DNA of 11,562 nucleotides from Verrucomicrobiia bacterium (GCA_035544315.1 DATKGB010000185.1:1-11562); one strand, 5' to 3'; shown: positions 4,675 through 11,015, counted from the first letter of the stretch. Notes: generated by a model from the letters alone, not told the origin. Numbers and translations: made by a program.

Positions 4675-5412
4675 CTACCGAGTCAAACAAAATGCCAGCG
4701 CGCAGAAGATTGCCGCCGCAACGACGACGCTCGGACGTGGCCACGTTCGCGAGTGCGCGGCCGGCTCCGGCGACGGTACGTCGTCGGTACCGAACCGAAC
4801 GATCGCAACGCACTGGCTTGACGATGTCAACGGCGCTCGGCCCGCGAGCGCGACTGCCAGTCGCCGTCGCCCTTCGTCGTCGCGCAGACGACGCGTGCAC
4901 AGCGCGAGCACGTCACCATCGTCGACGGTGAAACGGCACATCGACGCGTCCACCTGCAACTGCGTACCGATCGAGCGGGATAGGATCCGCCCGTCCTCGA
5001 TCGCGTCGTCCTGCGTGAGCGCGACGACGTATCCGGCTCGCAGGAGATAGGCCGCCGTTCCGCCGGCGTGCGCGACGAACGCGCGGCGCCCGCTCACCAG
5101 CACGATCGTCAACGAACTCCCGGCGGTAACGTAATCTTCGTGCGACGCGCTCCGGGCGAACAACTCGCCGTTGACGCGCGCGACGATGGCCAGCAGCTCC
5201 TCGATCTCCGTGTGCCCTCGGCGCAGCCCGCGCATAAAGCGTTCGGTGCGGCCGCGACGCTGGCATTCGGCGCGCAGGCGTTCGAGCGTCGCGCGCGCGG
5301 CCGGTATGCCGTCGATGACTCCAAAGCCCGCGGCGACGGCAAAAATTTCGGTCGCGTCGTCCAAGCGGACGCATAACGAGGAAGACGGATCGCTTGAAAC
5401 CGCAACGCTCAC
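4675..5412 (-). CDS. PP2C/PPM-like Ser/Thr phosphatase homologue (PstP/PrpC-like) with a C-terminal TM anchor; catalytic metal-binding motifs appear degenerate (possible pseudophosphatase)
   Basis: GTG start at 5412-5410 overlapping the upstream FHA gene stop (GTGA). The core GSSLTIVLVSGRRAFVAHAGGTAAYLLRAGYVVALTQDDA parallels the PP2C GTT..VAHIGDSRxYLLRDG...T.DHS block. The C-terminal hydrophobic segment SVVVAAAIFCALAFCL matches the membrane anchor of PstP. Canonical GDSR reads GGTA and CSDGL reads CTRRL. TAG at 4677-4675. Confidence 0.65.
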   Translation of the reverse strand: MSVAVSSDPSSSLCVRLDDATEIFAVAAGFGVIDGIPAARATLERLRAECQRRGRTERFMRGLRRGHTEIEELLAIVARVNGELFARSASHEDYVTAGSSLTIVLVSGRRAFVAHAGGTAAYLLRAGYVVALTQDDAIEDGRILSRSIGTQLQVDASMCRFTVDDGDVLALCTRRLRDDEGRRRLAVALAGRAPLTSSSQCVAIVRFGTDDVPSPEPAAHSRTWPRPSVVVAAAIFCALAFCLTR

Positions 5413-5822
5413 GGCAGCTTCCCAACGTAGCTAATGCGCGTGGTGCCCACATCGATCGTATCGTTGGGTCGCACCTCGATCGCACCATCCAAGCGGCGTC
5501 CGTTAAGAAACGTGCCGTTACTGCTGCCGGCGTCGCTCACATACACGATGCCGTGCTGGGCTTCGAAGCGGGCGTGCAACCGGCTCACTTGGGGATCCAA
5601 GACCATGACGTTCGCGCTGCTCGAGCGTCCGACAACCATCGGACACACGCCTTCGTAGCGCTGCATCGCACCCGCGTGCGCGACCTCGAGCGCGATACGC
5701 ACGGGAAGCGACGGCCCGGTATCGCCGGCGCGATGGGCGCGCGGGCGCGCCGCGACGACGGCAAAGATGGCCAGCGCAGCCAGAATCTCGACCGAACCGG
5801 CGCGCAAACCCGCCTCGTTCAC
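5409..5822 (-). CDS. FHA-domain membrane protein (FhaB/FipA-like): N-terminal TM helix plus C-terminal FHA domain, 137 aa
   Basis: GTG start at 5822-5820 overlapping the upstream gene stop (GTGA). TM segment VEILAALAIFAVVAA. FHA hallmarks MVVGRSSSANVMVLDPQVSRLHARF, SSNGTFLNGRRL and NDTIDVGTTRISY. TGA at 5411-5409. Confidence 0.85.
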   Translation of the reverse strand: MNEAGLRAGSVEILAALAIFAVVAARPRAHRAGDTGPSLPVRIALEVAHAGAMQRYEGVCPMVVGRSSSANVMVLDPQVSRLHARFEAQHGIVYVSDAGSSNGTFLNGRRLDGAIEVRPNDTIDVGTTRISYVGKLP

Positions 5823-8766: not shown

Positions 8767-9318
8767 CTACGTTGCCGAGGCGGCTTCCTCGACGGAGCGC
8801 TCGCGCTCTTCTCGTGCGGCATCTTCGGCTTCTTCTTCGGCCAGCGTTCGAAGGTTGCGAACTTTGTCCACATACAGCACGCCGTTGAGATGGTCGATCT
8901 CGTGCTGAATGCAGTGTGCGAACAATCCGTCGCCTTCCAAGCGAATCTTCTCGCCGAAACGATCCAGTCCGCTGATGGCGATGTGCGTGAAACGTAATGA
9001 TTCGCCAACGTATCCAGGAACCGACAGACAACCATCGCGGCGCCATTCCTCGCCTTGCGTGAGTTCCAGCTTGGGATTGACCACGACGAACGGGCCGTGC
9101 GTTTCGTCGTCATCGTGCAAATCGATCGTGAAGATCCGTTTGGAAACGTTGACCTGTGGCGCGGCCAGACCGATGCCCGGCGCGTCATACATCGTCTCGA
9201 ACATATCGTCGATCAATTGCTGAATCAGCGGATCGCGCAGTTCCTCAAGATGCACCTTCTTGGCGATCTTTCGCAACGTCGCATGACCATCGGCAATAAT
9301 CTCGCGCACATAAGGCAT
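8767..9318 (-). CDS. def: Peptide deformylase (about 183 aa; start uncertain between ATG 9318 and ATG 9360)
   Basis: Motifs GIGLAAPQV, DGCLSVPGY (EGCLS-type) and QHEIDHLNG are present. The N-terminal MPYVREIIADGHATLRKIAKKV resembles the canonical Def N-terminus, so ATG at 9318 is preferred. ATG at 9360 (MAGSNLATVEAWRP...) would add 14 residues. The track start at 9549 runs into the inverted-repeat element and is rejected. TAG at 8769-8767. Confidence 0.85.
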   Translation of the reverse strand: MPYVREIIADGHATLRKIAKKVHLEELRDPLIQQLIDDMFETMYDAPGIGLAAPQVNVSKRIFTIDLHDDDETHGPFVVVNPKLELTQGEEWRRDGCLSVPGYVGESLRFTHIAISGLDRFGEKIRLEGDGLFAHCIQHEIDHLNGVLYVDKVRNLRTLAEEEAEDAAREERERSVEEAASAT

Positions 9319-9395
9319 GGGCCGCCAGGCTTCGACGGTGGCGAGATTTGACCCCGCCATTCTTGTCGGCCTGAGCTTTGTCGAAGGGGCGGCCG

Positions 9396-9568
9396 CTCGC
9401 GAACCCCGCTGATCGTGGGGGTCGAATGTGGGACTTCCGATTTTTTTGAAAGCGCCCGGAGGGCGTATTCCTTTGGCCGTTTCAAAAAAACGGCGGAGTA
9501 GGAGCGGCCATGGATGGCCGCGACGAGCGTCCCCACATTCGACCCCCACGATCAGCGGGGTTCGCGAG
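9396..9568. repeat. 173-bp palindromic element: perfect 37-bp inverted repeats (9396-9432 and 9532-9568) flanking a 99-bp, comparatively AT-rich, hairpin-dense core; candidate MITE-like element or long structured regulatory/terminator region between hslU and def
   Basis: Arm CTCGCGAACCCCGCTGATCGTGGGGGTCGAATGTGGG equals the reverse complement of 9532-9568 with no mismatch. The core holds mirrored T7...A7 runs (9441-9451 versus 9480-9490) and hairpins gccgttt-caaaa-aaacggc (9476-9494), cgccc-gga-gggcg (9453-9465) and gcggccat-gg-atggccgc (9503-9520). Two track ORFs (9225..9536 - and 9428..9664 +) translate the identical peptide HSTPTISGVRE, because each reads one arm. Confidence 0.7.
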
Positions 9569-9587
9569 ATCGACGATTGCCGGGTAG

Positions 9588-11014
<1,427 letters not shown>

Positions 11015-11015
<1 letters not shown>

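Follow-up and report, generated by a model that had tools for sequence, protein, structure and literature searches.

A covarying inverted-repeat element between hslU and def in Baltobacteraceae whose closing stem keeps its pairing while its sequence turns over

What is a perfect 37-bp inverted repeat doing between the bacterial genes hslU and def? The question is raised by a stretch of 11,562 nucleotides (nt), hereafter the window, that is catalogued as Verrucomicrobiia bacterium (GCA_035544315.1 DATKGB010000185.1:1-11562) and whose sequence is that of the JGI metagenome contig Ga0395909_001102. A repeat search of the window returned two arms (9396-9432 and 9532-9568) that are complementary at 37 of 37 positions and enclose a 99-nt core, the whole element measuring 173 bp (9396-9568). 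The 37-mer occurs at exactly two sites, against 0.00 expected from 200 shuffles, in agreement with a first-pass annotation that had judged so error-free a repeat improbable by chance. The finer anatomy described there is likewise present in the sequence: a core richer in AT (GC content 0.57, against 0.68 in the arms and 0.63 in the window), a T7 tract (9441-9447) that pairs with an A7 tract (9484-9490), short stem-loops at 9504-9521 and 9453-9465, and a CCCCGC-TGATC-GTGGGG stem-loop within each arm. Both strands fold much more strongly than shuffled sequences (z = -12.1 and -10.0); the annotation had envisaged a long branched hairpin on either strand.

The relatives of its HslU and Def proteins place the window in Eremiobacterota, family Baltobacteraceae, and the bearers of the element are a small clade of uncultured soil bacteria within this family. 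Copies lie between the hslU stop codon and def, in identical orientation, in all four bearer lineages: the window itself (identical in sequence to loci L001 and L002; arms 37/37), L101 (on a 1.95-Mb JGI contig, 94.2% identical to the window over 10.1 kb; arms 35/37), L103 together with L092/L093 (HslU 90% and Def 86% identical to the window; arms 29/31, in a copy reassembled from contigs that overlap inside the element) and L094 (Def 85% identical to the window; arms 42/44). The element is not an assembly artefact, because two further JGI samples contain the identical sequence, in full in L002 and, in L003, as far as the contig reaches. Plain hslU-def spacers of 41-52 nt, without the element, are found in L089/L090/L091 (Def 88% identical), L098 and L104; a small open reading frame (ORF) of the HTH_3 type takes the place of the absent element in L095-L097 and L099, and other genes occupy the junction in L005 and L006. 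Trees of def-fmt-rsmB and of Def unite the four bearers with L089 in one clade and place the remaining, element-less loci outside it; the distribution fits, as far as these trees can tell, a single gain by insertion in the ancestor of the clade, vertical inheritance thereafter and at most one loss. The spacers of the element-less relatives are too diverged to yield clean insertion boundaries or a target duplication.

Across the four lineages the cores are 73-84% identical, at a divergence of ~23% in coding DNA, and comparison of the copies indicates that what is conserved is a structure whose helices covary. The 24 pairs of the three core helices (P2, P3 and P4), which were defined by eye from the same four sequences used to score the pairing, are 97.9% paired, against 41-60% when the partners are shifted by 1-3 columns. 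Four pairs are altered in both partners and none in a single partner. In P2, a G-C pair is C-G in the other three lineages (columns 67/78); in P3, a C-G pair of the extension changes to G-C and an A-U pair to C-G; and the closing pair of P4 changes from C-G to A-U in L094 (columns 124/128). An RNAalifold consensus recovers P2 and P3, the latter taking the form U7GNAA/UUNCA7 in the alignment, with a 3-bp extension and a bulged U. The linker between P2 and P3 contains CTCCTACT, invariant in all four lineages, although its final CC is replaced in L101. This covariation argues, from sequence comparison, for nucleic-acid pairing over recognition of a specific sequence by a protein.

The stem P1, formed by the two arms, is paired in every lineage (arms of 31-44 nt with 0-2 mismatches), and yet its sequence turns over: identity between lineages is 0.46-0.64 in the arms, against 0.55 in shuffles, whereas the cores reach 0.73-0.84. 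Even the arm termini differ by lineage (CTCGCG, GCCGGT, GGTTAC and GAAGCG). Between the window and L101, the intergenic region is ~58% identical, whereas its surroundings are 93-99% identical. Three double compensatory and two single changes separate the alignable inner 18 bp of P1 in these two copies, while the outer ~19 bp, though complementary, lack homology in both arms, as do the adjoining spacers. The 13-mer AGCGGGGTTCGCG of the outer 3' arm of the window is also present in the unoccupied hslU-def spacer of the outgroup L104; elsewhere in 1.63 Mb of loci it occurs only in identical copies of the window locus. Because AGCGGGGTTCGCG is common to the 3' arm of the window and the L104 spacer, the comparison suggests that the 5' arm of the window is an inverted copy of local spacer sequence. 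We infer that the outer stem would be rebuilt by inverted copying of adjoining spacer DNA, through a template switch across the hairpin, and that the inner stem would change by ordinary compensatory substitution. Selection in P1 would, under this scheme, act on pairing and not on sequence.

Further palindromes were observed around the stem base. The palindrome CTCGCGAG/TCGCGA lies at or near it in several lineages (window 9397-9402 and 9562-9567; L094:366-373 and 729-738; L101 arms), and in L094 an outer imperfect repeat (358-383 / 720-745) encloses the entire 390-nt intergenic block; together, these suggest that later material entered an older palindrome. Between the element and def, L094 alone has another long hairpin (648-729), which is unrelated; its 31-nt arms, the 5' one G-rich and the 3' one C-rich, are 90% complementary and flank a loop of 20 nt. 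The coordinates of the element and its surroundings in the window are collected in Table 1.

Table 1. Features of the hslU-def junction in the window.
Feature	Position	Strand	Description
hslU	9588..11015	-	upstream gene, 475 aa; stop codon 9588-9590
Spacer, hslU stop to element	9569..9587	-	19 nt; unconserved in L101
P1 5' strand	9532..9568	-	closing stem in the hslU-to-def reading (right arm of the first-pass annotation); inner end G-rich; inner ~18 nt homologous to L101, outer ~19 nt lineage-specific
Core	9433..9531	-	predicted three-way junction with P2 and the P3-P4 domain; 73-84% identical in four lineages
P2 hairpin	9504..9521	-	GCGGCC-AUCCAU-GGCCGC (sense); antisense loop AUGGAU
Linker P2-P3	9495..9504	-	predicted single-stranded; CUCCUACUCC sense, GGAGUAGGAG antisense; conserved
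P3 domain	9437..9493	-	CCG+U7GAAA pairs with UUUCA7+(bulged U)+CGG; encloses conserved CCAAAGGAAU and P4
P4 hairpin	9453..9465	-	(C)GCCC-UCC-GGGC(G)
P1 3' strand	9396..9432	-	closing stem; outer part with AGCGGGGTTCGCG
Element-to-def segment	9319..9395	-	conserved boxes GGCGGGGTC (9350-9358) and TCGAAG (9330-9335)
def	8767..9318	-	downstream gene, 183-aa form; gene-caller start 9360
Candidate antisense small ORF	9510..9587	+	25 aa, MDGRDERPHIRPP...; AGGAG 5 nt upstream

Pfam identifies hslV, hslU, def, fmt, rsmB, FhaA/FHA and FtsW/RodA genes, all on the minus strand, confirming that hslVU is followed by def-fmt-rsmB-FHA genes. Their order on that strand is hslV, hslU, element, def, fmt, rsmB, fhaA, a second FHA gene, an unassigned gene and ftsW/rodA, with def first in the series def-fmt-rsmB-fhaA-fhaB-...-ftsW/rodA. 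The def ATG lies at 9360 according to the gene caller or at 9318 (MPYVREI) according to the start used in relatives, that is, 35 or 77 nt from the element, and the stop and start coordinates agree with the distances first annotated. The hslU-def gap, at 227 nt, exceeds every other intergenic gap between co-directional genes on the contig, consistent with its earlier description as the only sizeable non-coding gap of the minus strand. The unassigned gene (~4900-5600, minus strand; L001:6965-7654) encodes ~229-245 aa without a Pfam match and lies between the two FHA genes and ftsW/rodA; in actinobacterial fhaA-fhaB clusters this position is occupied by the PP2C phosphatase PstP.

The first-pass annotation had suggested a MITE (a miniature inverted-repeat transposable element) and had set dispersed copies, as expected of a MITE, against a single conserved copy at hslU/def; BLAST and a covariance model both returned the second outcome. 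BLAST searches with the element and with its core over 1.5-1.6 Mb of fetched loci yielded the hslU-def copies only. Across 0.5 Mb of sequence in which all Eremiobacterota loci were included, the covariance model built on the core (R1) likewise found hslU-def copies only, with scores of 117-133 bits for the complete copies of the four lineages, 68 bits for the truncated one in L092 and no more than 17 bits at any other place. A 23-mer of the arm, a poor probe as the arms vary among orthologous copies, had no match beyond this locus in the JGI metagenome collection and none in 185,579 GTDB species genomes. The core pattern TTTTTTTGMAA-N0-6-CCAAAGGARTWCGCC found no match in viral contigs, and BLAST of the element against plasmids and phages returned one chance match of 44 nt and none, respectively. 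A six-frame peptide search for spurious ORFs over other copies gave 0 matches among 5.8 billion proteins, and an exhaustive HMMER search with the same purpose gave three weak matches to long unrelated proteins, which we took as chance.

Nor do the ends of the element behave like those of a transposon. As the first-pass annotation had remarked for the window, no target-site duplication is obvious: the four copies have no direct repeat in common, and the TCGCGA at the window ends, which could mimic one, is not seen in the other copies. In ~10 kb on each side, neither a transposase nor a RAYT gene was found. The arms, which would be the targets of a transposase, show the lowest conservation in the element and the core shows the highest, the inverse of what a MITE would show. 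We thus reject the MITE reading for an element with a single detectable copy in the DNA searched, variable termini, a conserved core, no shared target duplication and no transposase gene within ~10 kb.

A softer version of the same idea is that the element is what remains of a non-autonomous mobile element (of MITE, REPIN or Correia-like type) that inserted once in the clade ancestor, is now immobile and is kept in shape by self-correction of the palindrome, with no function for the host. The element is indeed an insertion relative to the outgroups and L089, with their 41-52-nt spacers, and the junction, an insertion hot spot, has also received HTH_3 ORFs (L095 and L099) and other genes (L005 and L006). 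The inverted-repeat arms around a core resemble CREE and REPIN, the window arms hold a REP-like CCCCGC-N5-GTGGGG motif, L099 has tandem CCC(C)AC-N4-5-GTGGGG hairpins, and the palindromic TCGCGA at both ends could mask a 6-bp duplication. Against a relic stand the absence of a second arm or core copy from all searched DNA, termini that differ in every lineage in the least conserved part of the element, the lack of a target-site duplication common to the four copies and the lack of a transposase or RAYT gene within ~10 kb. Moreover, core conservation of 73-84% with compensatory changes at ~23% coding divergence requires purifying selection. We consider a relic quite unlikely.

Two observations on the occupants of the junction may be added. 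The HTH_3 ORF found between hslU and def in Baltobacteraceae is Xre/HigA-like (L099:30-330; L095:3652-3963), and L099 (364-621) contains two direct copies of a CCC(C)AC-N4-5-GTGGGGGGCGCGGA hairpin that resembles the small hairpin in the window arms.

Metagenome assemblies have repeatedly been broken by the element at a locus that is otherwise conserved: at least eight contigs, belonging to six assemblies, end within it or at most 6 nt from it (L003, L086, L087, L088, L092, L093, L102 and L103). L086 ends exactly k-1 = 30 nt into an arm, and co-occurring relatives in the same sample share 32-nt stretches of core. We rejected these contig ends as a sign of repetition, since they are accounted for by a repeat longer than the assembler k and by core stretches common to co-occurring relatives. 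L087 turns to CCCCCCC precisely at the edge of the element (window 9396), and a read artefact of the poly-G kind or another allele may lie behind this switch. The contig ends could also arise from mixed orientations of an inverton, in which the repeats would serve as crossover sites for a recombinase that flips the 99-bp core and switches the expression of def or hslU, and inverted repeats of 31-44 bp around ~100 bp match that format. The orientation of the core is, however, constant in the four lineages and in every spanning assembly, the core has no promoter-like site on either strand, no recombinase gene was found within ~10 kb, and the repeat length and shared 32-nt stretches explain the breaks more simply. 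An inverton is very improbable indeed.

What, then, does the conserved structure do? The reading that we favour, with a probability of about 0.4, is a lineage-specific structured RNA within the hslVU-def transcript that serves as a processing or stability site. Under this proposal, a sequence that entered the hslU-def junction in the ancestor of a Baltobacteraceae sub-clade would act as RNA in the transcript that reads through from hslVU to def. It would fold into a three-way junction, with hairpin P2 and the U7/A7-closed P3 carrying P4, closed by a P1 duplex of 31-44 bp. RNase III would cut P1, splitting the hslVU message from the def-fmt-rsmB message and defining their ends, and the ~100-nt core would possibly be freed as a small RNA. 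RNase III requires ~20 bp or more of duplex and is largely independent of sequence, and a perfect duplex of 31-44 bp in a bacterial transcript is a generic substrate of the enzyme. The pairing of P1 exceeds that length in each lineage (29/31 to 42/44), and the predicted folds use P1 fully.

Sense RNA across the element is expected because the flanking genes are co-directional and no terminator lies between them. No U-tract follows the 3' arm of P1 in any lineage, the U7 being internal and paired with A7, and terminator scans gave only weak internal hairpin-plus-T matches, at about the shuffle rate. We rejected an intrinsic (Rho-independent) terminator on the ground that no U-tract follows the stem. 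The first-pass suggestion of a structure separating hslVU from the def operon is thus retained in its processing part, with its conserved structure and covarying helices, and dropped as far as a canonical terminator is concerned.

Motif scans found no promoter consistently within or beside the element. In outgroups, TAGAAT stands 8-9 nt before the def ATG (L104:7484-7489; L095:3986-3991) or ~10 nt before def (L099), and L098 (3985-3990) has GAGAAT 11 nt ahead of the def ATG. The equivalent box is TCGAAT in L089/L090 and TCGAAG in all four element bearers. The outgroup TAGAAT may be the -10 box of a leaderless def mRNA, and the change from TAGAAT to TCGAAG would be consistent with def having come to rely on upstream transcription plus processing.

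Several points weigh against the processing-site reading. With only four lineages, the covariation statistics are thin, and the core was scanned in ~1.6 Mb of fetched loci only, which leaves a small probability of dispersed copies with other arms. TAGAAT is a candidate promoter only, and sense transcription across the element is an expectation from gene direction. A 37/37 Watson-Crick stem without a G.U pair equally suits homogenisation at the DNA level. The fold itself, finally, tends to the other strand: all six arm mismatches are transitions, and five of the six P1 mismatches are A.C on the sense strand and G.U on the antisense strand. The minimum free energy is lower for antisense in all four lineages, by 2 to 16 kcal/mol, and the consensus fold reaches -38.6 kcal/mol on the antisense strand and -30.6 kcal/mol on the sense strand.

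These last figures would be accounted for if the functional RNA were antisense (plus strand of the window), with P1 as its closing stem: either a structured small RNA or a leader that is translated, acting as a CsrA/RsmA-type binding RNA or as a small-ORF mRNA released by RNase III. The antisense consensus gains a further helix, CCGGAGGG/UCCUUUGG, in which G.U pairs are kept in all four lineages and which would explain the invariant CCAAAGGA; in the window, the antisense strand has U.G where the sense strand has C.A. The CsrA/RsmA binding consensus is CANGGANG. Four antisense GGA motifs are present in all four lineages, among them those in the loops of P2 (CAUGGAUG) and P4 (GGA) and in the linker (GGAGUAGGAG); on the CsrA-like pattern of a GGA loop, the P2 loop reads CAUGGAUG in three of the four lineages and CCUGGAUG in L094. 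The literature offered no match for CsrA or for repeats in Eremiobacterota. AGGAG-N5-9-ATG is likewise found in all four lineages, where GGAGUAGGAG is followed by AUG on the antisense strand. The peptide behind this Shine-Dalgarno-like motif, however, varies in length from 25 to 61 aa and conserves only its first seven residues, M(D)GRDER, and the small ORF is probably a by-product of P2. On the sense strand, an ORF through the element is open in the window only, indels breaking its frame in the other lineages.

Antisense transcription, moreover, is not expected of an element between co-directional genes, and neither a promoter-like antisense site in any lineage nor a terminator after the element was found. 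P4, which is strand-neutral, accommodates the paired change of C-G to A-U in L094 better than does the helix that forms in antisense only. The sense strand is preferred by some pairs (in two lineages a G.U at the P1 inner end, in L094 one U.G), and five mismatches of six give a P-value of only ~0.1 under neutrality. We regard a functional antisense RNA as unlikely.

The mixed strand signals would also match constraint at the level of DNA, that is, a long palindrome or single-stranded DNA hairpin that is bound by a protein or affects replication or supercoiling, with P2 (an 8-2-8 palindrome) and P4 as operator-like sub-sites. A palindrome bound by a protein had been the third suggestion of the first-pass annotation. 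All helices are strand-symmetric, the compensatory changes in the core run from Watson-Crick to Watson-Crick without G.U intermediates, and P1 of the window is perfectly Watson-Crick. Extrusion of a cruciform is, however, kinetically unlikely across a 99-nt spacer. Protein operators keep their bases and do not covary, a four-helix branched fold with conserved single-stranded linkers is typical of RNA, and the annotated neighbourhood contains no adjacent regulator gene. Such a role is improbable, more so than that of an antisense RNA.

Comparison with known systems brings out what is shared and what differs. The RNase III stems of rRNA operons, the intercistronic regions of phage T7 and rpsO-pnp depend on duplex length and not on sequence, and covary freely. 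The proposed processing site would likewise consist of a long duplex made from sequences flanking a functional RNA segment in a polycistronic transcript; the known sites are usually bulged or contain internal loops and measure 20-30 bp, whereas cleavage of P1 is predicted only. Integron attC sites are imperfect inverted repeats in which structure is conserved and sequence is not. They conserve the outer R''/R' and vary in the middle, and they require an integron integrase and a cassette array, whereas the element shows the reverse pattern and has no integrase.

Mechanistically, the same step as proposed here is described for CREE/NEMIS of Neisseria, where the repeats form a hairpin in mRNA that RNase III binds and cleaves, altering the expression of neighbours (PMC2649163). 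These elements, built on a 26-bp Correia repeat, exceed 100 copies per genome (PMC2649163). Both types measure 100-160 bp, have inverted-repeat ends enclosing a conserved core and are often located in intergenic DNA that is transcribed, although CREE is mobile with a conserved repeat, whereas the present element has one detectable copy at one locus, lineage-variable arms and no identified IHF-type site. A Correia element was rejected given the different sequence, the different phylum (Eremiobacterota) and the single copy. REPINs are also reported to show compensatory changes across the hairpin, with invariant, abundant ends and an associated RAYT gene (PMC3116915). They share with the element two inverted, partly self-palindromic arms and a spacer, predicted to form a long hairpin in single-stranded DNA or mRNA. 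The 16-mer ends of REPINs are invariant and are the most abundant words of the genome, the spacer is variable and a RAYT is associated; here the ends are variable and unique, the core is conserved and no RAYT was found nearby. REPIN/BIME was rejected on the variable, unique ends and the lack of a transposase-like gene within ~10 kb on each side.

No hit at or above the gathering score was obtained with 4227 Rfam models under gathering and permissive thresholds. The best scores, 26 against a threshold of 83 bits in the window and 41.6 against 196 bits in L094, are noise from miRNA-precursor hairpins, and neither a transfer RNA nor a transfer-messenger RNA was found. The first-pass annotation had also failed to match a riboswitch or small RNA family. 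Having no Rfam family match, the motif is undescribed.

A bolder form of the RNA proposal, which we hold to be doubtful, is that the element represents a new class of Baltobacteraceae structured RNA. A conserved three-way-junction core of ~100 nt would be excised from the hslVU-def or the antisense transcript through cleavage of the closing duplex, itself continually rebuilt from inverted copies of flanking DNA, and would act in trans, for example as a GGA-rich sponge for a protein, or couple the heat-shock protease to the translation-start enzymes encoded by def-fmt.

The importance of the finding is moderate, the clade being narrow. P1 nevertheless offers a clean natural case of a long helix that would be held by selection for pairing alone, with the helix sequence nearly wholly replaced between genomes that are 94% identical, and should be useful for models of compensatory evolution and palindrome maintenance. 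The motif adds a candidate to the nearly empty list of non-coding RNAs of Eremiobacterota, and, should it serve in RNA processing, post-transcriptional control would have been gained, instead of a promoter, at an operon junction of an uncultured phylum.

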